DNA from: Myxococcales bacterium
GTDB taxonomy: Bacteria > Myxococcota_A > Polyangia > Polyangiales > DASUME01
Assembly (NCBI GenBank): GCA_047601445.1
Contig: JASGJH010000001.1
Coordinates: 6,976,001-7,040,000 of the forward strand
Length of the DNA stretch: 64,000 bases
Direction of reading: 5' to 3'
The number at the start of each line of letters is the position of its first letter. Position 1 is the first letter of the stretch. Positions 26,173-61,399 of this stretch are shown here, one piece after another. Both the position numbers and the translations under genes were made by a program. The notes beneath the pieces were generated by a model that had not been told where the DNA came from, searched no databases, and was given only the letters and a program-made list of their open reading frames with translations.

Positions 26173-35304
<9,132 letters not shown>

Positions 35305-44005: not shown

Positions 44006-45001
44006 CTAAGGAGCGCTCCCGCGCACGCAGCGCACCAGGGCCATGCCGACGTCGTCTTCGACCCAGTTGTCGAAGCCCTGGTCGAAGCTTACCGTCCACA
44101 CGTCGTGCTCGAAGTTCGTCAGGTGCGACGAGGTCCAGTAGGCGGACGGAGCGGTCCCGGGAAACGCCTTGGGATCGATGGACGGGTTGGATTTGGTCTC
44201 GTCCACCAACGTGTGAAGTTCCTTGATGGTGGGCAAGCGGAACCCTTTGCCGCCGAGGTCGAGCTCGCGGCAGTACACCGCGGCGTCGTCCCATGACTTG
44301 GCGTCGAGCGGTGGGCTTTGCTGCCAGGTGAGCTTGGTGGCGGTGTCTCGGACGGTGGGGCCGGCGACCTCGAACTGACCTGGCGTGGCGTCGCTGCGCA
44401 CGCAGCGCACGCGGTGCTCTGCCGTGACGTCGTCCTCGAACACGAAGCCCGTGCCGAACTCGAAGTTCACGATCCAGGCCGCCGGGAACAGCTCGAAATA
44501 GGGCGAGGCAGACCAGAAGCGTTGGGCGGGCGCGTCCGGAAAAGCGTCTTCGTCGATCAGCGTGTTCGGGCGCGTGAAGTCCAACAGCGAGAGCAGCTCG
44601 ATGCGTGACGGCAGGCGAAAGCCTCCACCGCCGAGCTCCAGGGCCTCACAGAGGGCGCGCGCCTCGGTCCACGCGTGGGTGTCCGGATCCACCTCTCGTT
44701 GCCACTCGAGCCCCGTCACGAGATCGCGCACTACACCGTCCTCGACTCGATAGCTCTGTGGGTTCTCGAGGCCAGGTTGCGCGGGGTTGGGCATTTGCCA
44801 CGCGGCGCGGGCGAACAAGCTCGTCGGTAGCGCTCCGCCGTCGTACGTCTCGAGGTCGGGCAGATCCGGACCGGAGCTCGCTCCGGCATCTCGCGGATGA
44901 GAGACCGTGAGCGCGGCGGGCTCTTCGATTCCGAGCACCGCATTGCACGCCCCGGTCGTCAACGTGAGGCCGAGCGCCGCCGAGAGCAGTGCGGGCCGCA
45001 T
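44006..45001 (-). CDS. DUF1566 (Lcl C-terminal, C-type-lectin-fold) lipoprotein with two domains
   Basis: TGAC lipobox. V.D..T.L.WQ...W..A...C..L..GG..FRLP...EL occurs twice, ending VRCVR. Confidence 0.9.
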   Translation of the reverse strand: MRPALLSAALGLTLTTGACNAVLGIEEPAALTVSHPRDAGASSGPDLPDLETYDGGALPTSLFARAAWQMPNPAQPGLENPQSYRVEDGVVRDLVTGLEWQREVDPDTHAWTEARALCEALELGGGGFRLPSRIELLSLLDFTRPNTLIDEDAFPDAPAQRFWSASPYFELFPAAWIVNFEFGTGFVFEDDVTAEHRVRCVRSDATPGQFEVAGPTVRDTATKLTWQQSPPLDAKSWDDAAVYCRELDLGGKGFRLPTIKELHTLVDETKSNPSIDPKAFPGTAPSAYWTSSHLTNFEHDVWTVSFDQGFDNWVEDDVGMALVRCVRGSAP

Positions 45002-46071
45002 CAGAAGCGCCCGCTGACTTGGGCTCCCACGGAGCCTTGGAAGAGCCATGGGGACAGGTTCGCGCGTGCGCGTTGCTCGGCTTCCTTGGAGCCCTTGAGT
45101 CGCCACCACAAGAACGTCGCGAGCCCGCCCGCCGCGAGCGCACCGCCCACCGAGACGAGGATCGTGGCGTTGCGCGCGTAGTCTCGGGCTTCCAGGCGGT
45201 CGGCCCGGCCGTCGGGAGTGCACTGGTTGCCCACGCAATTGACGTCGGACACGTGATTGGAGTGCACGGCGCGCAACGTGTAAAGAAAGCTCGCGCTGAG
45301 CGCCACGCCGCCCGCGCTCATCGCGCTGATGGCGACCCATTCCACCGGCGAGCGGGCGGCCGGGCCGTGTTCCGAGCGGCTCATTTCGGGCACACGAGCC
45401 ACGCTGACCTTGGGTGCCTTGCGTGGTGTCGAGCTTGGCGGGGCAGGGCTCGCGGCTTGGGGAGCGGCTTCGGGCGGGAGCGCGGGGATACTCACGAGCT
45501 GGCTGTCGCCCTGCCCCGAGAGCACGAGCTGCGTGGTCCATTCTTGTTTGCCGACGGCTTTGGCGCGCAACCTGTGGGCACCGCCGTCCAAGTAGAGGCG
45601 CTTGCCCAACTGGCCTTGTTCCAGAGGCAGGTCATCGAGTTCCACGAGGACCTGGCTATCGCTGGGCGCGGACACGATGACACTCGATACGCGAGCCTCG
45701 AGGTCGGCCTCCTTCTGCGCGGCAGCCGCCTCGCGGTCGCGGCGCCCCTCCGCGGCTGCGCGGGCTTTGACCTCGCGATACGTGGAGAGCGCGCTCGCGA
45801 GCCTACCGGCGCGCTCGTAGCAGACGGCCAAGGCGAGGAGACATCCCGTCGCAGGCTCGAGCCGAAAGCTCTCTGAGAAGAGCGGACAGGCACGCTCGTA
45901 GTCTTCCTGTGCGAGTCGATCCTTACCACTCTGAAAGAGCTGCTCCGCGGTCGGGTCTTCGGCACGCGCGCGCCGCGGGCGTGCCGTGATCGTGACGATC
46001 AGCGTGAGCAGACACAGCACCATCATTACGAAGAGGTGCCAGCGCGGCATCGCTCGCGTGCTCCGGATCAT
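45001..46071 (-). CDS. TPR + PEGA-like exported protein
   Basis: AEQLFQSG...ACPLFSES.RLEP..G.LL.LA.CYE..G.LASA TPR, a beta-sandwich segment and a hydrophobic C-terminus ending GRF. Confidence 0.85.
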   Translation of the reverse strand: MIRSTRAMPRWHLFVMMVLCLLTLIVTITARPRRARAEDPTAEQLFQSGKDRLAQEDYERACPLFSESFRLEPATGCLLALAVCYERAGRLASALSTYREVKARAAAEGRRDREAAAAQKEADLEARVSSVIVSAPSDSQVLVELDDLPLEQGQLGKRLYLDGGAHRLRAKAVGKQEWTTQLVLSGQGDSQLVSIPALPPEAAPQAASPAPPSSTPRKAPKVSVARVPEMSRSEHGPAARSPVEWVAISAMSAGGVALSASFLYTLRAVHSNHVSDVNCVGNQCTPDGRADRLEARDYARNATILVSVGGALAAGGLATFLWWRLKGSKEAEQRARANLSPWLFQGSVGAQVSGRF

Positions 46072-47986: not shown

Positions 47987-48958
47987 TCAGCGCACACAGC
48001 GGACTCGATGCACGCTGTCGGCCGCGAACCAGGCGTCTGATCCATGTCCAAAGTCCACCGCCCAATGGAAATCGGTGAAGCGCGCCAGCGACGTCGCAGA
48101 CCAGTAGTAAGCTGACGGTTCACCCGCGAAAGCTTCCTGGTCGAGGGCCGGGCCGGCACGCGTCTCGTCTACCAGCGAATGCAGCTCCTTGAGCGTGGGC
48201 AGTCGCCAGAGCTCCTCCGCAGTAGCCAGACCCATGCAGTACGCCTCTGCGCCCGCAGCGTCGTAGGTGGAGTCGGGAGACTTCGTCTGCCAGACCAGGC
48301 GTGTTCCCGCATCACGAACGCCGTTCGATAGGGCCTTGAAGGGCGACCCTTGCGCTTGTGAGCCCCCGCGCACGCAGCGAACCGGGTGGAGTTCATCGAT
48401 GGACACCGGAAGTACGTTCGTGCCCGAGAATCCAAAGTCCACCAGCCAGGCTGTGCCTGCACGACCTGCCAGGGGCGACGCGGACCAGTAGCGGTCTGCG
48501 ACGAAGCCAGGGAACGCCTCGAGCTCGTCGCTCTCGCTGTTCTGATCGAGAGCTAGCAACGACACGAGCTCGATGCGTGCAGGGAGCCGAAACCCTCCGC
48601 CATCCACGGTGAGCGCCGCACAATAGGTCTCCGCATCCAGCCAGCTGCGTGGCGTGGAATCGGTGCCGGCTTGCCACTCGAGCTTGGTCACGTCGTCCCG
48701 GACGACGCCCTCCACCGGGCTGCTATAGGCACGTGGGTAGGAGCCCTCCGGGGTGCCGTCCGGCATGGGCCAGCGCGCCCAGGCGTAGGGCGAGGGCTGG
48801 AGTGCGAGCCCGCCGTCGGCGCTGGGGCCCTCGGCGGTCGCATGAATCAGCACGCCGGCTTCATGCTCGGGTGGATCCGGCAAGTCGATGCCGAGCATCG
48901 CGCTGCACGCGCTGGAGGCGAGCGAGATCAGCGTGATCGGGCCCCGTGCAGCACGCAT
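47987..48958 (-). CDS. DUF1566 lipoprotein with two domains (paralog of 44006-45001)
   Basis: SSAC lipobox, VRDDVTKLEWQ, FRLPARIEL, WRLPTLKEL and VRCVR twice. Confidence 0.9.
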   Translation of the reverse strand: MRAARGPITLISLASSACSAMLGIDLPDPPEHEAGVLIHATAEGPSADGGLALQPSPYAWARWPMPDGTPEGSYPRAYSSPVEGVVRDDVTKLEWQAGTDSTPRSWLDAETYCAALTVDGGGFRLPARIELVSLLALDQNSESDELEAFPGFVADRYWSASPLAGRAGTAWLVDFGFSGTNVLPVSIDELHPVRCVRGGSQAQGSPFKALSNGVRDAGTRLVWQTKSPDSTYDAAGAEAYCMGLATAEELWRLPTLKELHSLVDETRAGPALDQEAFAGEPSAYYWSATSLARFTDFHWAVDFGHGSDAWFAADSVHRVRCVR

Positions 48959-48977
48959 GGGTGAGGCCTGGGAGCGT

Positions 48978-51900
48978 CTACTCGAGGTTTTCACATTTGT
49001 CATAGGCGGGCTGCGGCTGCTTGCCGACCAGGGCGTCGCGCGAGAGGCCATCGAGATAGAGAAACACGGCAAAGCCGGCGTTCATCGCGCCGCGCAGGGT
49101 CCAGGTCTCGAAGTCGTCTTGCTTGATTCGGTTCTCCTCGGTGAGCCAGGTGCTGGGACAAATGGGCAGCGGGTTGTCGGGAGAGCGTGCGGCTTGCACT
49201 TCTTCCACGCGCGGCACGTTCTTGGGATCGGTCGGCCACATCACGCACCATGGACCCAAATTGCCAGTGGCCACACCGGTCACGCTGTTCGCGCTCACGA
49301 TGCCGCGCTCGTCGCCGACCAAGGCGTACGCGGGGTACGTTTCCGGGCGGTACCACGACGATCGTGCGTCCAGGTTGGACGGCGCGCTCTTGATCTTGAA
49401 ATCGCCATTGTCGTAGTAGATTGCGCGCACCGGCGGTCGAGTGCCCCAGGCGCACAGCTTTTGCCAGACTTCGGCGTCTGCGTTCGTCCCGATCAGTGCC
49501 GAGCCCGTGTAGTCCGTGCGCCCGCTCTGCACGTTGAAGATGGGCGCGCTGTTCAGGTTGTAGCCCAACGACTGCCCGCACAGGCTCTGCGCGATGGCCA
49601 ACATGTTGGCGGAGCCTGCCTTGGCCGGATAGTCACGCGACACCCCGAGCACGCTCACTGCGCCCACTACGTCGAGGATCGCGTTGGGGATCTGGCGCTG
49701 CGTGCCTCCGAGGCCCATCCAGGCCACGTAGCGGGCGGTCCAGTCGTCGTAGGTCAGACCCTCGGTGAGATACTTGGACAACCCGAACACGCGCTTGCGG
49801 TTTTCGCCGGGTGCCGAGGAAGGGCCGAGGATGCCCTCCTTGAAGTTGGCCACGCGGGCTTCGCCTCCGGTGAGCGACATCAAGGTGTCGGCCTGGCGCC
49901 CTCGCGAGTCGTACTTGGCGCCGTGGCAGTTGACGCAAATCTCATTGAAGACCATGGCGCCAGGGGACTGGTAGTACAGCGGATCGGTGGGCCTCGGAGT
50001 GGGGGTCTTCTTGTCGAACCACCACGGGCGCGTCTCGGGTGTCAGCGACGAGACGCGAGGGATGTCCTGATAGGTGCAGTCGTCCTTGGGCTGCCAGAGC
50101 CCGAACGGCACGGGGGTGGTCGCGAACGCGCGGAAGCCGTTGGTCAGGCGCGCCTGCTTGAGCATGCTCACCACCTTCTTCTGCTGCGGATCCGAGCCGA
50201 CTTCGCCGTCCACCAACACCGAGGCCCAATCCGTGCGCCGCGGATACCACTCGCCTGGCGTCTCGGTAATGTCCGTTAGCACCCAGTGCGCGTGATCGGG
50301 CACGCCGTCGTTCTTGAGGGAGGCGAACAGGCCGTCGACGCTCTGGTCGGAGTCGAGCTCCGCCTGCTTGCTCATGGAGGGCAGAGAGGAGTGATCGCCC
50401 GGCGTGAGCTGAGTACCGCCGACGTTCGGATCCAGGATATCGCTGGTATCGGGGCAATACTTGGTCGCGCGATCGGGGGACAGGAACAACAAGCTCAGCT
50501 CTGGGTTCTGCACCGCGAAGGTCTGGCGGTCACCCGGCGCGGTCTTGTCGATGCCGACTGCACCGCCCACGTGATAGGCAGTCAATCGTTGATCGGCGCC
50601 CGCGAGGGCATCCTGATAGCCGGGATCGCCAGGCTTGACCTCGGAATACAGCGTTTGACCTTCGGCGAGTCCGCCGGTGGACCAGTCCATTTTGAAGCAG
50701 ATCCCCGTGCAGCCCTCCGCGTCGTTCATGCGCGCCGGAATGCTGATCATCCAGTTGCCGAAGATCTCGGGCACACGGCAGTCGAAGCCCACCGAGTTCA
50801 TCGGCATGTGCGGGAACAACGCGTAGTCCTCTGCATAGGTGAAAGGACTCTCCACGTTGCGATAGATCAGGCTGCGCCAGGGCGCGACCATGTAGTAGCC
50901 ATTGAAGGCCCCGTTGCTGCCCGGGTAGCCCATCCACTTCTGCGCGTAAATCGAGCTGTTCGGCTGCTCCTCGTCGAACAGCCAGGGCACGATGTACGGA
51001 ATCTGCGATTCCTGCTTCTCGCCGCGCTTGATGCGCGGGCTCGTGCGCTCCAGAGGGAACTGGAAGACACCGCCGCTCTGTTCGTTCGGAAAGAAATCGA
51101 GTAAGTCCTTCAGCTCCGGGTTCTGCGTGGTGGGAAAGCCACGGGGGTTGTGGCAATGGGCGCAGTTCCCAAGCATGTAGCCCTGGGCCTTGAGCTCGTG
51201 GTCGTTGCGCGGCGGGCGCGCGCCCTGGGATTGTTCGAGCGTCTTGACCTCGTCAGGGCTCGAAAGGCCAGTGATGGTACCGTATTCGATCAGACGCTCG
51301 AGTTGCTCGAGCTCGTCTTCGCTGGTGTCCTCGTAGGTCCCGCCTTCGCCAGTAGCGCGCCGACGCATTTGCAGCGGTGTGAGCCCGAGCAGGAAGCTTC
51401 GGTTGTGGCTGCCCATGTGGCACTGGATACAGCGCTCGCGGCCGGGGATCGCGTAGTTCCGCATGGCGCCTGCTCTGAACAGCGCTGCCACTCTGTTGGA
51501 GGGCTCCTTGGCCACCACCTCGGCGGCTTTGACCTCGTTGGACACGTAGCTCAGCATGACGTCGCGAAACGGCTTGCCGTCGCGTAGCGCCCCCGTGACC
51601 AAGATGGCCTCGGTCTCCTCTTCGTTCCACGCATAGGTTCCGAATAGGGAGCGCGTCTCGTGGGACCCGTCCGGCTCGTCGGGCCCATCGGCGCGCACTA
51701 CGATCAGGCGGGTCTCGATCTTCTTGTAGCGCGCGTTTCCGTTCGCATCGATGACCTCTTTCATGAAGGTCTTGTACACGCGCGTGTTATCCGGGACGTC
51801 GAACTCCTGGGTCTTGGCGTCGAACGCCAGGGACTCGCCGCGCGGCAAGCGCAGATGGCGCATCTTGCGTGCGTTGTCCGAGAAGAGCGGGTAAGCGGGC

Positions 51901-52715
51901 GCGTACGAAAGCACGCCCTGGTGCGCCAGGACCTCGGAGTCGTAGCTGACGAGGTCCGTCTGATCCAAGCGACTGGGAAGCGCCGTGGCGGATGCGAAGA
52001 AGGCATCCTTGGCGTCCATGGAGCTCTCGTCGGTGGCCAGCATGGCCCGGTTCGGGAGGCAGCTGCCGATGTTGGTGAGGCTCTGGGCCACGCTCTTGCG
52101 GAGCACGTAGGTATTCGCGGGGCCTGTCGTGCTGTCGTCTCCCACGTACAAGAGATCACCGGGCGAACCGGCCTTGAACCACAGCTCGAGCAGTTGCGCG
52201 AGCTCGACCAAGGGGTCGGTCTCCGCACGTTCGGACCAGGGCTTGGCGTTCGACTGTCCTGGCGGCGGCATGTACTTGTTGGGATCCTCGGAGCGGATGC
52301 GCTCGAGGATGAGGGCCTGGCGTGAGCTGGTCGCCTCGGCGAACTCGCCTACGTCCTTGACCTGAAAATCTCCGCGGATGGTCTCCACGTGGCAGGCACC
52401 ACAAGCACCCTTGAAGAGGCCGAACAAGTTGCTCGTGAGCACCGCGCGCTGGCCGGGCTTGAGGTTCAGCACACTCACCACGTCGCGCGCAGGGACAGGC
52501 TCGGCGGACTGCACGCTGGCGCACTTGGCGACCTCGGGTCCGGGATCGGGGACCTCGGACTCGCCGTCATCCTCTCCGCCGACGCCGGCATCGAACACGC
52601 ATAGCTTGGCGTGCGCAGCGGGACGCTCGCGCGAACAACCCGCGGTCCCGGCCAGGCTCCACGAGAGCAAGAGCATCAGCGACACACGACGGAAGAGCAT
52701 TCGTGACATGACCAT
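48978..52715 (-). CDS. Large multiheme c-type cytochrome lipoprotein (4 CxxCH, SO2930-like diheme core)
   Basis: TAGC lipobox. CGACH (52389-52403), CIQCH (51417-51431), CAHCH (51150-51164) and CVNCH (49923-49937). PLFSD.A.K.R, KTF, IETRL and Y.WN...TEA motifs. Start approximate. Confidence 0.85.
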   Translation of the reverse strand: MVMSRMLFRRVSLMLLLSWSLAGTAGCSRERPAAHAKLCVFDAGVGGEDDGESEVPDPGPEVAKCASVQSAEPVPARDVVSVLNLKPGQRAVLTSNLFGLFKGACGACHVETIRGDFQVKDVGEFAEATSSRQALILERIRSEDPNKYMPPPGQSNAKPWSERAETDPLVELAQLLELWFKAGSPGDLLYVGDDSTTGPANTYVLRKSVAQSLTNIGSCLPNRAMLATDESSMDAKDAFFASATALPSRLDQTDLVSYDSEVLAHQGVLSYAPAYPLFSDNARKMRHLRLPRGESLAFDAKTQEFDVPDNTRVYKTFMKEVIDANGNARYKKIETRLIVVRADGPDEPDGSHETRSLFGTYAWNEEETEAILVTGALRDGKPFRDVMLSYVSNEVKAAEVVAKEPSNRVAALFRAGAMRNYAIPGRERCIQCHMGSHNRSFLLGLTPLQMRRRATGEGGTYEDTSEDELEQLERLIEYGTITGLSSPDEVKTLEQSQGARPPRNDHELKAQGYMLGNCAHCHNPRGFPTTQNPELKDLLDFFPNEQSGGVFQFPLERTSPRIKRGEKQESQIPYIVPWLFDEEQPNSSIYAQKWMGYPGSNGAFNGYYMVAPWRSLIYRNVESPFTYAEDYALFPHMPMNSVGFDCRVPEIFGNWMISIPARMNDAEGCTGICFKMDWSTGGLAEGQTLYSEVKPGDPGYQDALAGADQRLTAYHVGGAVGIDKTAPGDRQTFAVQNPELSLLFLSPDRATKYCPDTSDILDPNVGGTQLTPGDHSSLPSMSKQAELDSDQSVDGLFASLKNDGVPDHAHWVLTDITETPGEWYPRRTDWASVLVDGEVGSDPQQKKVVSMLKQARLTNGFRAFATTPVPFGLWQPKDDCTYQDIPRVSSLTPETRPWWFDKKTPTPRPTDPLYYQSPGAMVFNEICVNCHGAKYDSRGRQADTLMSLTGGEARVANFKEGILGPSSAPGENRKRVFGLSKYLTEGLTYDDWTARYVAWMGLGGTQRQIPNAILDVVGAVSVLGVSRDYPAKAGSANMLAIAQSLCGQSLGYNLNSAPIFNVQSGRTDYTGSALIGTNADAEVWQKLCAWGTRPPVRAIYYDNGDFKIKSAPSNLDARSSWYRPETYPAYALVGDERGIVSANSVTGVATGNLGPWCVMWPTDPKNVPRVEEVQAARSPDNPLPICPSTWLTEENRIKQDDFETWTLRGAMNAGFAVFLYLDGLSRDALVGKQPQPAYDKCENLE

Positions 52716-52807
52716 GGGATGCACGCGACCCCTGGCGTCGCTTGCCGCGACGTCAGGGGCGCTTTGGATGGACGTTTTCGAGCCCGGCGACATCCGCGAA
52801 GGAGCGG

Positions 52808-54706
52808 CTACTTTGCGAAGTAAGTGGCGTTGTCGAGCGAGATCTTGGGCGCGCTCGGGCTGTTGGCGTCGTTGCTGCAAGTCACGGCGTAGGGATCGAC
52901 GCCGGGCGCCAGTGCCAAGAAGCCGCGCTTCTCCACGGCCGCGTTCGCACGATCGGGACGACGCGAGTCCGTGTAGATGGCCTTCACGAGGTTCCACTGG
53001 GCATCGACCTGCTGCTGGGGCGTGATGGTCCCGGAGAGGGGGGCTCCCTGGTACGTGTACACGCTGGAGCTGCCGGTGCGGGATTCCGCGGACTCACCGA
53101 GGCTGTTGAAGCCCTTGAGGCTGCTCACGAACACGTAGCGCGAGAGGGCGTAGCTGCGGTCGCGGATCGTGGCGTAGTCGCTGGCGATGGGATCGTTGTT
53201 GAGGCTGAACACGCGCGGCTGGGTGACGCCCGCGGCAACCGTGTCCTTGTACACGGGCAACGCGCCGAAGCCGATGCTGTTGAGGTCGTTGGGTACGGCC
53301 GTGGTCAAGCACGCGACCTGCAGGTCCGAGGCAAGGGTCTGCGTGCAGCGCGTGGTGAACGGACGATTGCCCACGTTGGAGAGGCCGCGGTTGGTGGTGG
53401 CCAGGCGATAGAACGCGAGGGCCGGCGCGGTGGCGCTCGGCTTGATGTTGCCCGTGGCCGGATCGCGCAGAAACAGGTTGTGAACGCGCGGATCCTGCCG
53501 GCGGAACGCGGCGGGGACGCCGACGTTGCAGCAGCGCGACGCGGTGGGCAGGCCGTTGAAGGCGGTGTTGGTCTTGGCGCCCCACGCGATGGGCGTGTTG
53601 TCGCGGGTGCCGTCATCGCCGTTGAGCACGCCAAAGGCGGGCGCTGTAGAGGCCTGCGGAACCTGGCAGCCCGAGCCGAACTTCACGTTCCAGTTGAAGC
53701 GACGAGCTTCGGGAGAGTTCGGGTTCTCGAAGTGTGCGGGGACGGGGTAGCGGCAGTCGCAGCGCGTGAGATTGGAGAGCGTCGCGGGAGCTCCCGCGGC
53801 CAGGCCCGCGTATGCCGAGGCGGGCACGCCGAGGCTGGCCGACGAGGGGTCGATGGAGCTCGGACCGCCAGAGCACGCTTGGCCCTGGGCACCGGAGAAC
53901 TTTCCGAACGCAGCCGTGGAGGTACCGTTGGCGCCCGTGTAGAGATCGGGCAGGTTGTTGGAGAAGGTGGGCACCACGATGGGCAGCACCAGACCGAGCG
54001 TGCCGTCGGCCTCGGCGACCTGGTCGTTGGCGTCGGCGTAGCGACGGATCGGGTCGAGATCCTGGGCGTCGGTGCCGTTGCACCACTTCTGGTTGGTGCC
54101 GGGAATGCCTAGCAGGGCGATGAAGAGCTTGGCCGTCGCGCTCGCTTCACCGCGGCGATAGATGTGGCGGATCTGGGTGTTGGCGGGGACGCTCGAGCTG
54201 GCGAACAGGCTGCCGTAGTCAGCCGCCAAAGCGCGGCGCGCAGCGCTGTTGCAGTCCTGAGTTTGGTCGCGCAGATCATAGCCCGCGTAGAGCAGCGAGA
54301 GCGCGTTCTGCCAGGTGCCGTAGTTCGTGCCGATGGTGGGGTTGCCCTCCGGGAAGCGGTTCGGATGACCCACGTTCAAAATGCCATCGATGGCGAGCAC
54401 GATGTCTTGGGCATTGGGGTAGGTGCCGCACAGGCTGTCGCCGAGCTGCGCTGTGAAGAAGGCGATCACCTGGTTGCTGGTGGTGCTCTTCAAGGCCGTC
54501 TCGCCCGGGGTCTGACCGCCGCCCGCGTAGTCGAGGAACGAGCCGAGGTCCGCGTTGGCCGACAGCGCCGGATCCGCGAGGAACGCGGGCCGCACGACGG
54601 GCTCCCACGAGTCCGAGCCGGCCAGCCTGAGGAGCTGCGCGTCGGCCGCGAGCGGCACCGCGCTCAGCGCGGTCACCACGGAGATGAGTGATAGTCCTTT
54701 GTTCAT
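52808..54706 (-). CDS. Secreted PstS-like (type II periplasmic-binding fold) protein with large insertions
   Basis: Signal peptide, then L.LAGSDS, GGG..PGE.AL, LAIDGI, YRRGEASAT, SIGF and Y.LSRYVFV in the order expected for the PstS-like fold. No ABC permease nearby. Confidence 0.7.
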   Translation of the reverse strand: MNKGLSLISVVTALSAVPLAADAQLLRLAGSDSWEPVVRPAFLADPALSANADLGSFLDYAGGGQTPGETALKSTTSNQVIAFFTAQLGDSLCGTYPNAQDIVLAIDGILNVGHPNRFPEGNPTIGTNYGTWQNALSLLYAGYDLRDQTQDCNSAARRALAADYGSLFASSSVPANTQIRHIYRRGEASATAKLFIALLGIPGTNQKWCNGTDAQDLDPIRRYADANDQVAEADGTLGLVLPIVVPTFSNNLPDLYTGANGTSTAAFGKFSGAQGQACSGGPSSIDPSSASLGVPASAYAGLAAGAPATLSNLTRCDCRYPVPAHFENPNSPEARRFNWNVKFGSGCQVPQASTAPAFGVLNGDDGTRDNTPIAWGAKTNTAFNGLPTASRCCNVGVPAAFRRQDPRVHNLFLRDPATGNIKPSATAPALAFYRLATTNRGLSNVGNRPFTTRCTQTLASDLQVACLTTAVPNDLNSIGFGALPVYKDTVAAGVTQPRVFSLNNDPIASDYATIRDRSYALSRYVFVSSLKGFNSLGESAESRTGSSSVYTYQGAPLSGTITPQQQVDAQWNLVKAIYTDSRRPDRANAAVEKRGFLALAPGVDPYAVTCSNDANSPSAPKISLDNATYFAK

Positions 54707-54755
54707 TGCATTCCTACTCTCTGTTGAGACGTTTCCTTCGGATTGAACTCAGCGC

Positions 54756-55724
54756 CTACGGCGTCGCCACGAGCGGTGCGCGTCGCAGGCGACGAAGCGT
54801 GAACACCAGCAGCAAGAGCGCGCCGAGCCCGCCCACCGCGAGCCAGCGTGTGAGCGGCTGCTCGCCCAGCTCGTACAGGGCGCGTTGCCAGGGCGAGCTA
54901 ACCTCGGCGGTGACGCGCGCCATGACCTCGACTGCGTCTGGCTTCATGGAGCTATGCCGAGCACGCTCGACGATCTGCGCCGCCCCCGCATAGTCCTGCT
55001 CCTGCATGGCCAGCGTCCACTCGTAGCCGAGGGTCTTGGCCTGGTTGGGGGCCGTGCCGCGCAGCGTTTCGAGGCAAGCACGCAGGCGCCCCGTATCGCG
55101 CACGCGAACGCCGACGTCGCAACGCAGCTGCGCCACGAGCGTCGGATCCACCTTCGCCTGCTCGAGATGCTTCAGCACCGCATCGAGGTCGTTCAGGCGC
55201 GAGGTCGGCACGGCTCCCGGCTGAACCAACGCCAGGCGCACGTAGCGCATGTAGTCGTCCACCACCACGCCGGGCTTGGTCAAGGCCATGGCGCAGGCCG
55301 AAAGACCGCGCGCCTTGTCGTCGCCCTCTTCGTAGGCCTGGCAGAGCTTCGAGAAGCCTGCCGCGACGCCAGGGACCGCCAGTGTGATCGCACGCAGATA
55401 CTTGGCGGCTTGCGCATGATCTCCGCGTTGACTCGCGCGGTCGGAGCGCTCTGCAAGTTCCATCAGATAGTTCGCGAAATCGATCGGGGCCGCGTTGCGC
55501 TCGGCCTCGCTCGGCACGGCGATCTCGGCCGCGCCGTCGTCGATGGGGAAACCGGTCACGAACAGCGAGTCGCCCATCCGCCGGGCCTCTTCGGGAGACT
55601 CCGTGGGCAGGATCTGGGCGTTTTGGGCGCCCGACGAACTCGCTGACCACGCCTGGCAGAGCACGAGTAGCGGCAACAGAAGAGACCGCCAACGACGAAC
55701 ATCGATCGAACTGCGCTTGAACAT
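54756..55724 (-). CDS. Exported TPR-like helical protein with C-terminal membrane anchor
   Basis: Signal peptide, helical repeats with Cys and a C-terminal TM followed by RRLRR. Confidence 0.75.
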   Translation of the reverse strand: MFKRSSIDVRRWRSLLLPLLVLCQAWSASSSGAQNAQILPTESPEEARRMGDSLFVTGFPIDDGAAEIAVPSEAERNAAPIDFANYLMELAERSDRASQRGDHAQAAKYLRAITLAVPGVAAGFSKLCQAYEEGDDKARGLSACAMALTKPGVVVDDYMRYVRLALVQPGAVPTSRLNDLDAVLKHLEQAKVDPTLVAQLRCDVGVRVRDTGRLRACLETLRGTAPNQAKTLGYEWTLAMQEQDYAGAAQIVERARHSSMKPDAVEVMARVTAEVSSPWQRALYELGEQPLTRWLAVGGLGALLLLVFTLRRLRRAPLVATP

Positions 55725-55740
55725 CGTGACATCACCTCAT

Positions 55741-56508
55741 TCAGAAGAAGCACTGCGTGGGGCAGAAGATTCCATCACCTTCGATCACCATCTCGGCGAG
55801 CCCGATCGGGTAGGTCGGATCCAAAAAGCGGTTCTGCACTTCTTTGATGCCGTCCATTTCGGCCTCCGAGGCCGCGGTGATCTCGCGCACACAGGCGCCA
55901 GCCGCGTCTGCGAGCGGTGTCGTCAAGCACGTGGTGGACTCCACGCCGGGGCCGCAGAGGCAATCGGTGAGGTACACCGTTCCGCTCTCGTCGGGTTTGG
56001 TGCATCCAGTGCGCCAAATGCACTTGAGCAGGTCAGTGCAGAGCACCGAGCGCTTGCGCCCGGCTCCGATGCCCATTTCAGCCTTGCCTTCCATGGCGAG
56101 GCACGCCGCGCGCGCGTGATAGTAGGCGCTCTCGGGATTGATCGTCTCTTCGCAGGACGCGCACTCGAGGGGATCGCCGAACGGTCCCTTGGTGGGGTCG
56201 TTCCCTGCGTCCGATCCGGCGTCGTCCTCGGACTGCGACGCGTCGATAGCAGAAAGCCACGATCCACCGGTGCCGCCGTCGAAGAACTCGTCGGAGACCA
56301 CGTCGGCATCCACCTCGGGGCTGGCGGCATCGCCCGCATCCGGCTTGCCCGCGTCCAGTCCGCCCGCATCGCTCGGCGGGAAGACACAGAGGGCTTGATT
56401 CGGACCTGCCATGGGTTCTGCACCACAGCCCAGGGCGAGCAGAGCCAGCCCGCTGCCGAGGCGCGCGACGCGAAGCGTGAAGAGGTGCCGGTTTCCATGA
56501 AGGGTCAT
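55741..56508 (-). CDS. Lipoprotein with a 12-Cys C-terminal domain (paralog of the upstream gene)
   Basis: ALGC lipobox, DAG-rich linker and C..CE...C...GC...DC.CG.GVE.TTC...G.C...NRF.DPTY.IG.A. Confidence 0.8.
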   Translation of the reverse strand: MTLHGNRHLFTLRVARLGSGLALLALGCGAEPMAGPNQALCVFPPSDAGGLDAGKPDAGDAASPEVDADVVSDEFFDGGTGGSWLSAIDASQSEDDAGSDAGNDPTKGPFGDPLECASCEETINPESAYYHARAACLAMEGKAEMGIGAGRKRSVLCTDLLKCIWRTGCTKPDESGTVYLTDCLCGPGVESTTCLTTPLADAAGACVREITAASEAEMDGIKEVQNRFLDPTYPIGLAEMVIEGDGIFCPTQCFF

Positions 56509-56538
56509 CGGGAACAGAGGTGCCAAGCGGTGTTGGAG

Positions 56539-56610
56539 CTTCTCGCAAGGGGCCTTCCGGGGAAGGAAGGTCGCTCGCGAGAAGGCGCGACGCCATAGAT
56601 GACGTCGCGC
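56539..56610 (-). terminator. Two tandem stem-loops after the first operon gene
   Basis: GCGCGACG...CGTCGCGC (56585-56610) and CTTCTCGC...CCTTCC/GGAAGG...GCGAGAAG (56539-56584). No U-tract. Confidence 0.5.
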
Positions 56611-56621
56611 TCAGGTATCGC

Positions 56622-58016
56622 TCAGGGCGCCAAGCAGACGTCGACGCACGAGAACTGGTCGCAACCTTCGATCACGGAGTCCGCTGCGCCGATGGCGTAG
56701 GTCGGATCGGTGAAGCGGTTGTTGATGTCGGTGATGCTCTCGGACTCCGCACCCGCGGCGACCTGCTGCTTGCAGGGACCGGTGGCGGCGGCGTAGGTCG
56801 AGCCGAAGCAGGTGGTAGGTTCGACGCCGATGCCGCAGAAGCAGTCGGACACGAAGATGTTGCCGCCGTTGTCCGGCGCTGCGCAACCCGAGGTGTGCAC
56901 GCAATCCAGGATCGCCTTGAAGATCTCGGCGCGTGGCTTGCCCGAATAGGAGTTGCCCGCGATGGCCGTACCGGAGCCCGTGAGCGCGAGGCCAGCGGCG
57001 TAGCTGTCCGGGCAGCTGGGTTCGCCGTTGTGTTGCTGCGTTTCGCAGGCGGTGCAAGCGGCGAGCGGATCGGGCGGATTGCCGGTGGTGGTTCCAGTGG
57101 TGCCCGTCGTGGTGCCGGTGGTTCCGGTCGTGTCCGTCGTGGTTCCAGTGGTGCCCGTCGTGGTGCCGGTGGTTCCGGTCGTGTCCGTCGTGGTTCCAGT
57201 GGTGCCCGTCGTGGTGCCGGTGGTTCCGGTGGTCGTTCCGGTGGTTCCAGTGGTCGTTCCGGTGGTTCCAGTGGTCGTTCCGGTGGTTCCGCCCGCCGTG
57301 GTCACCGTAATGGTGAAGGGATAGGGGTCGCTCGTCGTGTCGCCGTCCGACACCACCAAGGTCACCGTCGTGGTCCCGGTGGCCGTGCCCGTGAAGGTCG
57401 CGGTCGGGTAGCCCGTGGTCACATCGCCGCCTGCGCTGGAGGTCCAGGTGTAGGTCAGCGCGCCGGGCTGGTTGTCGGGATCGTTCGCGGTGGCGACTAG
57501 CTGTGTGGTGCCGCCGAGGACGACGCTCGGCTTCAACGTCACGATGGACGAGATGACCGGCGCCACGTTGGCGTCACCGTTGACCAGCAGGGAGCCGCCC
57601 GTCACCGCCGGACCGCGGAAGATCAGGTGTACCGAGACCGTGGTCTGGTTGCGTGCGGTGATGCTGAAGGTGGCCGTGCCGGCGCCCTTCGTGACCCCGT
57701 CGGTGGCCGTCGCCGTGAGGTTCAAGGTGTAGTTCTGGCCCGCCGGGATGGGGCTGATCACGTGGGAGAACGTGTTGCCCGTGCCGGCCACGGAAAACGT
57801 CCCGGTGAGCGGCGCGGCGAGGCCACCGCCGGTGATGGTATAGGCGACGCTGTCGACGGTGACGTTGCCCGTGACGAGCCGGAGCTCGGCGCCGCCCACC
57901 TCGTGCTGAGCCTGCTCGGCGCTTGCATCTTCGCTGCTGCAGCCAACCAGCCCGACGCTGCCGTACGCTGCGGCGAGCGAGAAGATGATTGCACTGCGGA
58001 TCGATCTATTCTTCAC
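56622..58016 (-). CDS. Surface lipoprotein: Ig/PKD-like domains, Thr-Gly linker, 12-Cys C-terminal domain
   Basis: AGGAGGA RBS before the GTG at 58016. LVGC lipobox. N.AP.I...A.A.DPD...LTYTW...VTL.VSDG Ig-like motif. Confidence 0.88.
57082..57290. repeat. Nested 51-bp and 21-bp tandem repeats encoding the GTT/GTTT linker
   Basis: The 51-bp unit GTGGTTCCAGTGGTGCCCGTC...GTGTCCGTC occurs almost three times, followed by three copies of GTGGTCGTTCCGGTGGTTCC(A). Confidence 0.92.
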
Positions 58017-58141
58017 AAGTATCCTCCTTGCGAGCGTGCGCATCCGCTTGCCAGCGCACTCCAACCCGTTGCGCTGGGCGCATACGGACTCGAGTGCGTT
58101 GGTGTTGGCCGTCGCTCTTCGTCTTGCTGCGCCGAGCGCTA

Positions 58142-58157
58142 CGCAACCTGTGTGCCA
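58142..58157 (-). promoter_or_regulatory. Sigma-54 (-24/-12) promoter of the surface-protein operon
   Basis: Minus strand reads TGGCACACAGGTTGCG, an exact TGGCAC-N5-TTGC consensus. Confidence 0.85.
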
Positions 58158-58221
58158 TGGGAAGAGATGTGAGAATTGCCGTGAAAATGGCCTCGCTGTC
58201 GCCGAGGTCGGCGTCGCAGTC

Positions 58222-58268
58222 TGCTCATGAATGAGCAAGCTCTGCTGCTGACTGCTGATTGGTGAGCA
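58222..58268. promoter_or_regulatory. Tandem palindromic upstream activator sites
   Basis: TGCTCAT-GA-ATGAGCA (58222-58237) and TGCTGAT-TG-GTGAGCA (58253-58268), 31 bp apart. Confidence 0.7.
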
Positions 58269-58438
58269 ATGCGATGTCCGATTGCAGACGCACTGACAAT
58301 CGCTCGCGTCGTCGAGCGATCTGCAGTCCCGGATCACGCGCGTACGTGCTGACGTCACGCCGTTAACGGCCCGAGCGCCGCGCTCGCTGCTGGAGCGTGC
58401 GTGGACTCGAACCTCGATGGTGTGCGCCGAAGGCCGCT

Positions 58439-59570
58439 CTACTTGCCGTCTTCCTCTGCACTCGAACGACGAGTGGTGCCGGCAATTTCGCCCTGTTCGA
58501 TCAAGCGCGCGCGAACCACGTTGCGACTCAAGCCCAACAAGCGCGATGTCTGGAGCTGATTCCTTCCGCAGTACTCGTGGGCCACGCTCACCAAGCGACG
58601 CTCGATGTAGTGATGGAGGTGTTCGATGTTCTTCTCGAACAGACGGTGCAGGGCCTCTTCGAGCAGCGCGTCGGCGTCGTTGCGCTCGATGAGATTCCGA
58701 CCCCTGCGCAGCTTCCAGCGGCTTCACGCTGCGAGGCGGCGCGGCTCTCCTGAGGTTCAGTTGTGGCTCGTCGATGCTGTCTCCATCACGCACGAGGACC
58801 GCGTGATGGATGACGTTCTCGAGCTCGCGGATGTTGCCTGGCCAGCTGTGCTCCAGGAGCGCGCAGCAGGCCGCGGGAGCGAGCGTGAGTGGACCTGCAC
58901 CCACGGCTTCTCCATAGAGATTCAGAAAGTGTTCGGCCAGCGGGAGAATGTCCCGGGGACGCTCACGCAGGGGCGGAACCACGACGCTGGCGACGCTGAG
59001 TCGATAAAAGAGGTCCGAACGGAAGCGCCCCGCCGCCACGGCCTCTTCCAGGTTGACGTTGGTCGCCGTGATCAACCGGAAGTCCACCGCCACGGTGGTG
59101 CTCGATCCGAGCCGCACGATTTCGCGTTCCTGCAGCGCGCGCAGCAGCTTTACCTGCGCGGCCATGGAGAGGTCGCCCACTTCGTCGAGAAAGAGCGTCC
59201 CGCCGCGGGCGGCCTCGAACCAGCCCGTCTTGGCGCTCGTCGCGCCGGTGAAGGCCCCACGCTCGTGACCAAACAGCTCACTCTCCACCAGGGACTCGGT
59301 CAGCGCACCGCAGTTCACCGCTACGAAGGGGCCGCCGCTGCGGTTGCTCAGGCGATGGACGAGCCGCGCCGCCAGCTCCTTCCCGGTACCGGTCTCTCCA
59401 CACAGCATCACGCTGGCGTTGCTCGGCGCCACCAGCTCCAGGCGCCGCAGCAGCGCAGCCGATCGTTCGTCGGCAAACAGCAGGGCTCGCGCGCGTGCGT
59501 TTTCACCCGTGGCAGGAGCCGGGACGGTGCGGGTCTGAGGGTCCGCATCGTCGCGGAATTTGACGGGCAT
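58439..59570 (-). pseudogene. Sigma-54-dependent enhancer-binding protein, SfnR-like, with an apparent +1 frameshift at about 58701-58704 (possibly an assembly error)
   Basis: [31 protein letters not shown] and [10 protein letters not shown]. No N-terminal sensor domain. The [24 protein letters not shown]...K* lies in the shifted frame, with its stop at 58439-58441. Confidence 0.9.
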
Positions 59571-59612
59571 GAGAGTTCGCATTCCAGACGGGGCCGGCAC
59601 GGACGCGCGCTA

Positions 59613-59628
59613 TGCAAGAGCGGAACCA
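59613..59628 (-). promoter_or_regulatory. Putative sigma-54 promoter of the activator gene
   Basis: Minus strand reads TGGTTCCGCTCTTGCA (GG-N10-GC, TTGCA), about 45 bp upstream of the ATG. Confidence 0.6.
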
Positions 59629-59780: not shown

Positions 59781-60800
59781 CTAGCGCAGCTCACCTGGCC
59801 GCCCGTGCTCGACCACGGGGGAAGACGGCTGAATCAGGTTTTCGTTGCGCGTTCTAAATTCGCGTCTCTTGCCGAACTGCTGAATGAACTTGGCGCACTC
59901 ACGGACATCGTCTGCAGTCACGTGCGCTGCCCAGCCGACCAGCATGATCCACTCGAACAGGTAGATGTTCATGGCGTACTCGATGCCCAGGTGAAGCATC
60001 AAGATGGCGAGCAGGGCCAGGCGTCGTGTCTCCCGAAACCACACGAGCAACGGAGCCAGGATCTCGAGCAGCAATGAACCCCAGGTGGTCAGCCGGGAGA
60101 ACAGCAAGGACTCACGCAGGAAGTCCGGGATGGGCCCGTGCATCGCGAAGTCGTCGAGGTGGAGGATGAAGTACATCGCGGTCCCCTCGCGCCACATCGT
60201 TCCGCTCAGCTTCTCCACGCCAGCCGACCACAGCAGGGCAGCCATTTGAACCTGCACCAGACGCAAGCACCAGCCATCCACTTCCGTGGCCACTGCAAGG
60301 CCGCGCCTGCGCCGCACGAACGCGTCCAGGGACCAGACCTCCGACGAGCGCATGAAGATGGTCAAGAACAACAGAATACGGAAGATCTTGTCGCCTCCGT
60401 CGAGGATCATCGCGTTGCGAAAGTCGAAGCTCACTGCCCACACGAACACGCAGATCGCTTGCAGTCGAGTCGCCGCGCCCAGCGCCAGTAAGACTCCCTG
60501 TCCGAGCGCGATGGCCCAACACGTCCAAACCACGTTCGGCGTGCTCGGCAGCCAGTCCAGCAGACTCAAGGTCCCTGCGGGGGCAAACAGCTTGCGCTGG
60601 GTTAGCGGGAGCACTCCGCCGTCGGTCCACCACATGTCCACGTGGGGGATGGCGAGCAGAAGGTCGAGCACGAAGAGGCTAGCGAGAGCGATGCGATGAA
60701 AGGCGAGCCGGCGTGCGTCCACCGAGGCGTGTAGCCAGCGGTCGAGGGCCCTTCCGAGCTCCATCAGGGCCGGGAGATCGTCCTGTGCACGAGCGGTCAC
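59781..60800 (-). CDS. HTTM domain membrane protein
   Basis: LAFHRI, DGGVLP, RN..I.DGGD, WSLDA, RLVQVQ, AG.EKL.G..W..GTA, and H.GI...MNI..F...M. Confidence 0.9.
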   Translation of the reverse strand: MTARAQDDLPALMELGRALDRWLHASVDARRLAFHRIALASLFVLDLLLAIPHVDMWWTDGGVLPLTQRKLFAPAGTLSLLDWLPSTPNVVWTCWAIALGQGVLLALGAATRLQAICVFVWAVSFDFRNAMILDGGDKIFRILLFLTIFMRSSEVWSLDAFVRRRRGLAVATEVDGWCLRLVQVQMAALLWSAGVEKLSGTMWREGTAMYFILHLDDFAMHGPIPDFLRESLLFSRLTTWGSLLLEILAPLLVWFRETRRLALLAILMLHLGIEYAMNIYLFEWIMLVGWAAHVTADDVRECAKFIQQFGKRREFRTRNENLIQPSSPVVEHGRPGELR

Positions 60801-61399
60801 GGCAGGACCTCCACGTGAAAGAGATACTGATGAGGAAATACGGTTTGCCCGGGGATCGCGCGCCCGAAGTAGTTCGGTGCGCCCGGATTCGGGACGTCCC
60901 ACCAGTGACGGACCAGCTCCACCCGGGCCGGCACCAAACCCCGCTCGGGTCGTGCTAGCCGGGAGGCTGCGAAGCGAGCCAGCGCTGGCCACAACACACG
61001 CGAATCGTCGCGACGCAGCGCGTCCCACCACTTGGCGTGACGCCCCTGGAGGATTTCATCGCCCGCGCTTTGCTGCTCCCAGTCCGGACTCTTCCAGCTT
61101 CCGCTCTCGCCGTTGCGGAAGGTGACCTTGGCTTCGATCCAGGCGTTGGTGCGCTTGGGGTCGGGAGCAAAAAGCTTCCAGTCACCTTGCCAGAGTCCCA
61201 GTGGGTAGAGGACTTGGCCGCATAGCTGGCGCAAGCTCGTGCGCGCGGGGGAGTCACCGGGCAGAGCATCCTGCAGCAGCGCGCCCATGAGCAGCACGGC
61301 AAAGCCGTTGATTAGCCAACGCTCAAAGCGTGCCTTGGCGCCGCGCGCGAGCGAGAGATTCGCGAGTTCTGGGGTCGACACGCGCCCAGCGCTGAGCAA
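60797..61399 (-). CDS. HTTM-partner membrane-anchored protein (SdpA/DUF5819-like)
   Basis: N-terminal TM, LGLWQG.W.LFAPDP and R..KW. Its stop overlaps the HTTM start (GTGA). Confidence 0.75.
   Translation of the reverse strand: MLSAGRVSTPELANLSLARGAKARFERWLINGFAVLLMGALLQDALPGDSPARTSLRQLCGQVLYPLGLWQGDWKLFAPDPKRTNAWIEAKVTFRNGESGSWKSPDWEQQSAGDEILQGRHAKWWDALRRDDSRVLWPALARFAASRLARPERGLVPARVELVRHWWDVPNPGAPNYFGRAIPGQTVFPHQYLFHVEVLP

Follow-up and report, generated by a model that had tools for sequence, protein, structure and literature searches.

According to a figure legend of PMC8234197 and the titles of cited papers, SfnR of Pseudomonas is the sigma-54 activator of the dimethyl-sulfone genes sfnFG and sfnA, and is encoded together with msu/sfn genes. 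The locus analysed here lies in a stretch of 64,000 nucleotides (the window; contig JASGJH010000001.1, positions 6,976,001 to 7,040,000) of the genome of a Myxococcales bacterium (GCA_047601445.1; a single contig of 9,502,601 bases, ~66% G+C), and comprises a short activator gene, a sigma-54 promoter and six closely spaced genes (designated g1 to g6) for exported proteins, among them a PstS-like protein (g4) and a four-heme lipoprotein (g5), followed by a seventh gene (g7). Like SfnR, the window activator is a short sensorless sigma-54 activator with an AAA+ domain and a Fis-type helix-turn-helix (HTH), the AAA+ part being 57-60% identical to the msu-linked Pseudomonas putida protein. Unlike SfnR, it is encoded by a gene that is split by a frameshift and adjoins genes for exported heme proteins and lipoproteins instead of flavin monooxygenase genes, and the palindromes beside it have no other copy in their genome.

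Two of the products also have described relatives. g4 shares the type II periplasmic-binding fold of PstS (PBP_like_2, PF12849), but is about twice as large, contains Cys-rich insertions and has no PstCAB-type permease or ATPase nearby; an earlier statement that the locus lacks any ATP-binding cassette (ABC) permease or ATPase was borne out by the Pfam matches of the operon and of the 34 other open reading frames (ORFs) of the window. Residues 247-534 of g5, which include two of its CxxCH motifs (CIQCH and CAHCH), match the SO2930-family diheme cytochromes (TIGR03806; E 1.2e-31, profile positions 2-237 of 314), but at 110.1 bits the match is far below the cut-off of 313.3, and g5 is approximately 3-4 times longer, with two further heme domains and a lipoprotein signal. 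No function for the SO2930 family was found in the open full-text literature, in which SO2930 received a single passing mention (subscription journals were outside coverage). Porin-cytochrome conduits (Mtr, Pcc) are likewise built with envelope lipoprotein c-type cytochromes, and some loci related to the present one encode a possible heme-bearing barrel protein; unlike the conduit cytochromes, g5 has four hemes as opposed to ten or more, and no sequence or fold match of g5 to Mtr or Omc proteins was obtained (profile against solved structures, Foldseek and structural alignment).

The locus is read here as one copy of an uncharacterised, sigma-54-dependent envelope heme-redox module which is widespread in Polyangia and which, in this genome, stands under an activator of the SfnR family; the probability of this reading is put at approximately 0.5. 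It is built on the observed gene set and its conservation, the folds, the promoter with its palindromes and the family of the activator. All genes of the locus are on the minus strand (third-position G+C frame analysis and ORF lists), on which the order from 5' to 3' is the AAA+ part of the activator, the HTH part, two palindromes, the promoter, g1 to g6 and then g7. Gaps of 16-95 nucleotides (nt) separate the genes from g1 through g6, while g7 follows in the same direction after 197 nt and its membership of the operon is uncertain. Domain labels were assigned at a Pfam cut-off of E ≤ 0.01, with NCBIfam models used in addition, and export of the g1-g6 products was judged from their N-termini, without a predictor. 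A preliminary description of this DNA had listed a sensorless sigma-54 activator, palindromes, a perfect promoter and six closely spaced genes for exported proteins, an arrangement which was confirmed by the sequence, the ORFs and Pfam. It had also stated that no described pathway of this composition is known, and indeed no published description of the gene set was found in the full-text literature (subscription journals and supplements being outside coverage); the parts come from known superfamilies and the combination is without a characterised counterpart, while there is a smaller chance that it constitutes a new enzyme system.

Conservation was assessed through g5, the core protein of the module, for which 541 relatives were found in the protein collection at E ≤ 0.001, either unnamed or assigned to a mono/diheme cytochrome c family, and relatives were present in at least 292 of 326 pattern-matched stretches of species-representative genomes. 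Seventy-nine loci were kept, 78 of which came from records titled Myxococcota or Polyangia or from loosely labelled proteobacterial metagenome-assembled genomes. Searches with tblastn identified g3-like genes in 41 of the 79 loci, g4-like genes in 39, the Cys-rich domain shared by g1 and g2 in 33, a sigma-54 activator in 24 and the N-terminal domain of g1 in 20; of the 39 loci that are 20 kb or longer, 37 carried one or more partner families and 29 carried at least two kinds. In an all-against-all clustering of the ORFs from 62 loci (those of at least 12 kb, window included, with the window's 992-codon fusion ORF removed as it had merged activators with lipoproteins), g5 was represented in 59 loci, the g1/g2 family in 54 (142 proteins), g4 in 53 and g3 in 39. 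Gene order and strand vary between the loci, so that a search of Myxococcota for the same gene neighbourhood returned a conserved gene set with shuffled order and strands.

Many genomes carry two copies of the module. The window genome has a second, divergent copy at ~2.56-2.605 Mb, in which the counterparts of g3, g5, g7 and g6 are 36.5%, 38%, 49% and 41% identical, respectively; g3-like, g5-like and two g4-like genes lie at ~2563600-2604800, with g1-, g7- and g6-like genes 30-40 kb away. No activator, exact sigma-54 consensus or CTCCG-N5-CGGAG palindrome (see below) was found in the 20 kb of this second locus that were scanned (L021, 2588000-2607900). A family of approximately 412 amino acids with one CxxCH near the N-terminus is encoded in 23 of the 61 other loci (e.g. 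L039:12844-14082 (-) and L048:5256-6500 (-)); its C-terminus (...HYFL) looks like that of an outer-membrane barrel. No Pfam model matches the family, and tblastn with two queries did not detect it in the window genome (E ≤ 1e-4). Accessory genes, each of them seen in 6-8 related loci, encode a TonB-dependent receptor (L100:4795-7860 (+)), a TPR protein with a family-41 glycosyltransferase domain (L078:20770-22830 (+)) and a matrixin-type peptidase (L050:22431-23681 (+)).

The promoter upstream of g1 is a perfect TGGCAC-N5-TTGC, of which there are 17 exact sites in the 9.5-Mb genome. The two palindromes are 31 bp apart and are centred ~74 and ~105 bp upstream of the GG of the -24 element (measured from coordinates), which is the usual geometry of sigma-54 enhancers. 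A genome-wide scan for TGCTSAT-N2-RTGAGCA, which the preliminary description had proposed to look for near sulfur genes, returned two sites only; both are at the window operon, and no site lies close to a ssu, tau, cys or ats gene. Neither an exact nor a one-mismatch second copy of the perfect palindrome was found in the 9.5-Mb genome, while sites with two mismatches numbered 48 compared to 13 for the reversed control. In P. putida one exact and several one-mismatch matches to the window motif were detected; the two that were inspected (the exact match and one palindromic one-mismatch match) both lie inside coding regions, and the region upstream of the P. putida SfnB-like gene contains a GG-N10-GC site and CTGTT/AACAG repeats, unlike the window palindrome. 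Literature searches on SfnR returned no binding-site consensus for it.

Only ~43 residues precede the AAA+ domain of the window activator, leaving it without a receiver or sensor domain, and the GAFTGA loop is present in its translation. Compared against 20 P. putida activators, the AAA+ part had its best match (60% identity, 335 bits compared to 259 for the next best) in a 367-amino-acid sensorless activator encoded directly after msuE, msuD and an msuC-like gene; the matches of these genes to MsuE and to alkanesulfonate monooxygenase scored above their cut-offs, the remaining one matched a DszC/SfnB-like oxygenase, and SfnB- and MetQ-family genes are close by. This msu-linked protein was treated as SfnR by its gene context, not by experiment. 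By alignment, the window AAA+ part is 57% identical both to it and to a paralogue in the window genome at ~7.4075 Mb, which is intact and 62% identical to the window activator; the three proteins are collinear over their entire length, including the motifs which the preliminary description had given as SfnR signatures. The listed database relatives are 58-69% identical, 297-398 amino acids long and carry generic names only (from Polyangia, Sorangium, Burkholderia and others).

A tree of 89 AAA+ domains (the window activator, 47 further ones from its genome, 20 from P. putida and 21 from other Polyangia loci) was inferred with a quick IQ-TREE maximum-likelihood search under LG+G4. The window activator was placed in a clade of four members (SH-like approximate likelihood ratio, SH-aLRT, 98) together with the paralogue at ~7.4075 Mb and two P. 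putida activators, the first of them the msu-linked SfnR. The second P. putida member directly precedes a gene of the MetQ/NlpA family, while the paralogue is 2.4 kb away from a gene with a weak match to SsuA-family binding proteins (E 7e-12, below cut-off) and ~9 kb from an NtaA/DmoA-family monooxygenase. The SfnR-like character claimed for the activator was thus upheld by the msu-linked best match and by the phylogeny, in which it clusters with SfnR; as far as sequence comparison goes, the kinship stands.

The activator gene as assembled is interrupted. Its HTH part, which can be aligned with the C-terminal ends of its relatives from P. putida and from the window genome (53% identity to the own paralogue by tblastn), sits in the +1 frame relative to the AAA+ part, with no intact HTH following in the AAA+ frame. 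The shift falls in a poorly conserved linker, in an interval which contains a GGGG run at 58701-58704, and a stop codon at 58726-58724 closes the HTH frame. Among 48 activator genes examined in the genome, only one other showed a break between lid and HTH frames (~8327100-8328165 (-), referred to as the ~8.3275 Mb gene), a hint that the assembly has homopolymer errors or that activators decay recurrently. The AAA+ frame itself stays open for 992 codons (56622-59600, minus strand), crossing the HTH region, both palindromes and the promoter and continuing in frame with g1 to its stop; this is probably due to chance, a rough estimate being a few percent for ~140 stop-free non-coding codons at this G+C content.

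Regulation of the module elsewhere differs. Short activators were found within 10 kb of g5 in the 24 loci mentioned above, and 14 of 25 activator matches in related loci have stop-to-stop frames of 335-384 codons, so that these too would be without a sensor domain. Of 21 activators of other loci in the tree, 20 form a clade of their own (SH-aLRT 99), distinct from that of SfnR. Sigma-54-like sites (≤2 mismatches) precede 8 of 27 g1-like genes compared to none of 27 in the antisense control, while the exact TGGCAC-N5-TTGC occurred once in 82 scanned loci (the 79 related loci, L013, L014 and the second locus L021) against 2.5 expected. A palindrome of the type CTCCG-N5-CGGAG was seen upstream of these promoters and of some g4- and g5-like genes in the few loci inspected, with A/T-rich spacers in the examples at L031:9523 and 14880, L024:6761 and 6784, and L085:9785 and 15262. 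In its loose form this pattern has a density of 41.7 per Mb in the loci compared to 14.7 per Mb in the window genome; it is absent from the window operon, and possibly represents the site bound by the activator clade that usually accompanies the module. Conversely, the window palindrome with up to one mismatch was found in none of the 82 scanned loci. Because 20 of those 21 activators belong to a different clade, the few loci inspected have a different palindrome and the window palindrome is missing from all scanned loci, the activator clade and the enhancer have, at the level of sequence, changed together in the window, while the genes behind them are of the same kind.

With respect to the structural genes, all four CxxCH motifs of g5 were invariant in 18 aligned homologues, and an AlphaFold2 model of the protein was confident (predicted local distance difference test, pLDDT, 87.1; predicted template modelling score 0.86). 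A g5 profile searched against solved structures gave heme-motif matches to CcoP only (best E 9.4e-4). By exhaustive structural alignment (VIA-align), in which all Z values for g5 were below 8 and in a range that may reflect merely a common arrangement, the five best matches to residues 198-407 were all cytochrome P460/c'-beta entries (e.g. 6hiu, 8brk and 7s5o; Z 6.6, 6.1, 5.9, 4.4 and 4.2). The top three (Z 5.9-6.6) aligned over 122-134 residues of proteins of 135-156 residues at 8-13% identity, and a CxxCH of g5 is situated close to the C-terminal limit of the alignment. To find one family in all five top places is suggestive, no more; in Foldseek the same family appeared at E 0.67 or weaker and a probability of 0.2 or lower. 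Solved P460/c'-beta proteins have a five-coordinate heme, cross-linked to a Lys in P460, to which small molecules bind. Two further regions of g5 have structural counterparts, namely the class I cytochrome c domain of FoxE for residues 46-141 (Z 6.5, with 84 residues at 24% identity) and, for residues 785-1186, monoheme subunits of the ActE kind (Z 4.8). Four genes near 349 kb, 6.487 Mb, 9.299 Mb and 9.437 Mb match g5 residues ~212-577 at 22-27% identity and probably encode stand-alone diheme cytochromes.

For g4, the label 'PstS-like' proved correct as a fold: all 14 Foldseek matches at E ≤ 1e-3 were phosphate-binding proteins (top match 4n13 at 9.6e-5), and no sulfate, thiosulfate or molybdate binding protein was among the 42 Foldseek rows listed. 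PF12849 matched 9 of 45 members of the g4 family (best E 3.2e-9), the window copy itself having no Pfam family. The family consensus contains GSDTL, GGGSG.GE, PMSR and RRDD.SGTT, which we take to be PstS-like motifs and which presumably map onto the ligand residues of PstS. The corresponding positions in the window copy read GSDSW, GGGQTPGE, AFFT and RRGEASAT, and in the window subfamily the SGT-type loop is SAT and PMSR is replaced; R184 and R185 are invariant in the family. When g4 was searched against 41 genomes of the same genus or order, only 8 (including the window genome) matched, weakly, and the window subfamily is therefore rare among the sampled genomes. The nearest relatives of g4 and g5 are 75% and 56% identical, respectively, and metagenome scans with g4 found no close relative (no locus in one scan, then one locus at 30% identity).

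Complex formation, catalysis by g5, the substrate and the inducing signal we infer from these observations, as follows. g5 would be a redox enzyme held by its lipid anchor on the periplasmic side or at the cell surface, in which the second heme, within the P460/c'-beta-like domain, would bind a small substrate and the other three would pass electrons to or from soluble carriers. g4 may hold an oxyanion substrate or product, or may serve as a scaffold, while g1, g2 and g3 would anchor or assemble the complex. Having no sensor, the activator would be regulated by its amount and not by a ligand, and this amount would switch on the module, which in the window genome would have been rewired to an SfnR-family activator and two private palindromic enhancer sites. 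The module belongs among the recurrent envelope gene sets of Polyangia, which are abundant and mostly uncultured soil bacteria, and no member of its four core families has been characterised. It provides a candidate, open to testing, for a new heme enzyme of the periplasm or cell surface that is paired with a transporter-less binding protein recruited from the phosphate-transport lineage, and the natural swap of activator clade and enhancer would be useful for studying the rewiring of sigma-54 regulons and control by sensorless activators.

Several results weigh against this reading. The co-occurrence counts are conditional on g5, through which the loci were collected, and the related genomes are not independent. 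In other loci no enrichment of sigma-54-like sites was found upstream of g3-, g4- or g5-like genes. Foldseek with the whole g5 model returned nothing at E ≤ 1e-3, its top rows being unrelated large proteins, and with this and the modest Z values the P460-like assignment is a lead, not a result. The g4 model has a pLDDT of 66 overall (70-95 in the N-terminal lobe, with residues 263-406 poorly modelled), and as the window copy has diverged from the PstS-like motifs of its family its ligand may differ or be lost; it may bind nothing. g6, which had been described as part of the system, has a homologue in none of the 79 related loci (tblastn), and on this comparison is local to the window locus and outside the conserved set. 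Finally, the activator as assembled is split and may be non-functional. The last point leads to an account in which the activator is a decaying, non-functional copy of the genome's true SfnR-like gene, the operon being silent or else activated by a different one of the ~50 sigma-54 activators, or by the AAA+ fragment acting from solution without its HTH; in that event the SfnR kinship would say nothing about the role of the operon. The +1 frameshift between the AAA+ part and the HTH, the intact 62%-identical paralogue, the lack of any database relative above 69% identity and the 53 PF00158 matches in the genome are all consistent with such decay. We nevertheless regard it as distinctly unlikely: the interval of the break contains a GGGG run, both halves retain good family similarity, the promoter and the perfect palindromes are intact, and, because the ~8.3275 Mb gene shows the same break between lid and HTH, both breaks could plausibly stem from homopolymer errors of the assembly.

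The preliminary description had proposed a sulfur-starvation-induced surface system, in which an SfnR-type activator, produced under sulfur shortage, turns on a complex for binding an extracellular sulfur source and perhaps for its redox processing. The company kept by the activator's clade argues for it, with one P. putida member ending the msuE-msuD-msuC operon beside SfnB- and MetQ-family genes, another directly before a MetQ/NlpA-family gene and the intact own paralogue near the weak SsuA-family match and the NtaA/DmoA-family monooxygenase; so do the oxyanion-binding fold of g4 and the near absence of Met from g1, g4 and g7 (none besides the GTG start in the 464 residues of g1, and the start only in the 632 of g4 and the 573 of g7). 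Other results count against it. The module is not tied to SfnR, because 20 of the 21 activators of its other copies fall in another clade and the palindrome, in the few loci inspected, is different; the window palindrome defines no sulfur regulon, because it has no other copy in the genome; and the structural neighbours of g4 are phosphate binders. No ssu, tau, cys or ats gene, and no sfn/msu/ssu organosulfur linkage of the activator, was found among the operon and the 34 other window ORFs, and TIGR04021 had no match at cut-off in the genome (seven sub-threshold matches all lie outside the window, the nearest ~378 kb away). An alternative role as a low-sulfur replacement for a standard surface complex agrees with the Met-poor g1, g4 and g7, but not with g2, g5 and g3, which are rich in Cys and Met (99th, 81st and 79th percentile within the genome, g5 being richer than 94 of 119 homologues). 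Judged by its sequences, the structural gene module is not sulfur-specific and its proteins are not sulfur-poor overall; with the activator frameshifted as well, a sulfur-starvation function is unlikely. Less likely again is a fuller scheme in which the four conserved families form an unrecognised, Polyangia-specific envelope enzyme complex that, with the P460/c'-beta-like heme as its catalytic site, oxidises or reduces a small oxyanion or gas outside the cytoplasm under dedicated sensorless sigma-54 activators, and in which the swap to an SfnR-family activator and enhancer has brought this copy under sulfur-limitation control, with a sulfur oxyanion such as sulfite or thiosulfate as substrate. 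The least probable of the accounts is that the module is a surface conduit for metal or mineral redox or extracellular electron transfer and not an enzyme for a soluble small molecule. In its favour, the iron oxidase FoxE is the closest match to the heme domain at the N-terminus of g5, both g5 and the g1/g2 pair are lipoproteins, and the 412-amino-acid one-CxxCH family has, by reading, a barrel-like C-terminus; but the FoxE match is confined to a class I cytochrome c domain of generic type, g5 with its four hemes over 1245 residues is far from the dense heme chains of known conduits, and the 412-amino-acid family matched no Pfam model and went undetected in the window genome by tblastn (two queries, E ≤ 1e-4). 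The reading as an envelope heme-redox module under an SfnR-family activator is preferred to each of these.

Table 1. Features of the locus, in window coordinates and in the order of the minus strand
Feature	Position	Strand	Basis or remark
Activator, AAA+ part with lid, 300 codons	58701..59600	-	PF00158 E 1.6e-66, residues 44-206; AAA_lid_14 4.6e-19
+1 frameshift interval, linker between AAA+ lid and HTH	58690..58723	-	three-frame translation and sequence
Activator, C-terminal part with Fis-type HTH, +1 frame relative to AAA+ part	58439..58696	-	NF002517 Fis family E 9.9e-7
Distal enhancer-like palindrome TGCTGATTGGTGAGCA	58253..58268	.	sequence; one of two genome-wide TGCTSAT-N2-RTGAGCA matches
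Proximal enhancer-like perfect palindrome TGCTCATGAATGAGCA	58222..58237	.	sequence and genome motif scan
Sigma-54 promoter TGGCAC-N5-TTGC (-24/-12)	58143..58157	-	~125 nt upstream of g1 start
g1, lipoprotein (lipobox LVGC); N-terminal domain, Thr/Gly-rich linker, Cys-rich C-terminal domain	56622..58016	-	ORF translation
g2, lipoprotein (lipobox ALGC); same Cys-rich C-terminal domain as g1	55741..56526	-	ORF translation
g3, exported helical protein; signal peptide and C-terminal membrane helix/anchor	54756..55724	-	ORF translation
g4, secreted 632-amino-acid protein; PstS-type periplasmic-binding fold, Cys-rich insertions	52808..54706	-	Foldseek
g5, 1245-amino-acid four-heme c-type lipoprotein	48978..52715	-	four CxxCH motifs
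g6, DUF1566/Lcl_C lipoprotein; two Lcl_C/DUF1566 stretches	47987..~48958	-	PF07603 E 1.1e-42; ORF open up to 49072
g7, 573 amino acids; no signal peptide, Pro/Ala-rich middle, one membrane helix	46068..47789	-	ORF translation

The GTG start of g1 is preceded by AGGAGG, and an alternative ATG lies ~30 nt upstream, near 58046 (counted by eye from the printed sequence). g1 has no Pfam or NCBIfam family, and its N-terminal and Cys-rich domains occur separately beside g5 homologues in other loci. The Cys-rich domains of g1 and g2 are 39-40% identical; an Atlas search with this domain returned only unnamed Myxococcota clusters, with structural rows at TM ≤ 0.35. g3 at full length belongs to no known Pfam or NCBIfam family, and the labels 'Ig' for g1 and 'TPR-like' for g3, given to them previously, found no Pfam support. 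The N-terminal 265 residues of g7 recur near g5 homologues in 3 of the 79 loci, as well as near the second locus. Scans for sigma-70 promoters and terminators gave no excess over shuffled controls, and in a search of an anti-phage defence library g1-g7 had no match, the activator matching RtcR-type AAA+ models only.

Further genes of the window were noted beside the locus. A second Lcl_C/DUF1566 protein, 39% identical to g6, is encoded 2.4 kb downstream of g7 (44006-45541 (-)), and a further g6 paralogue lies near the second module locus of the genome. Directly upstream of the activator, and in the same direction, are an HTTM-domain membrane protein (PF05090) and an overlapping ORF of 200 amino acids (59781-61399 (-)), with ~180 nt between this pair and the start of the activator. 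An ORF of 3043 amino acids (26173-35304 (+)) contains Cys-rich DUF4215 repeats (10 stretches, summed E 2.2e-228) and a Big_9 domain; DUF4215 was also found in some members of the g1/g2 and g4 families elsewhere.

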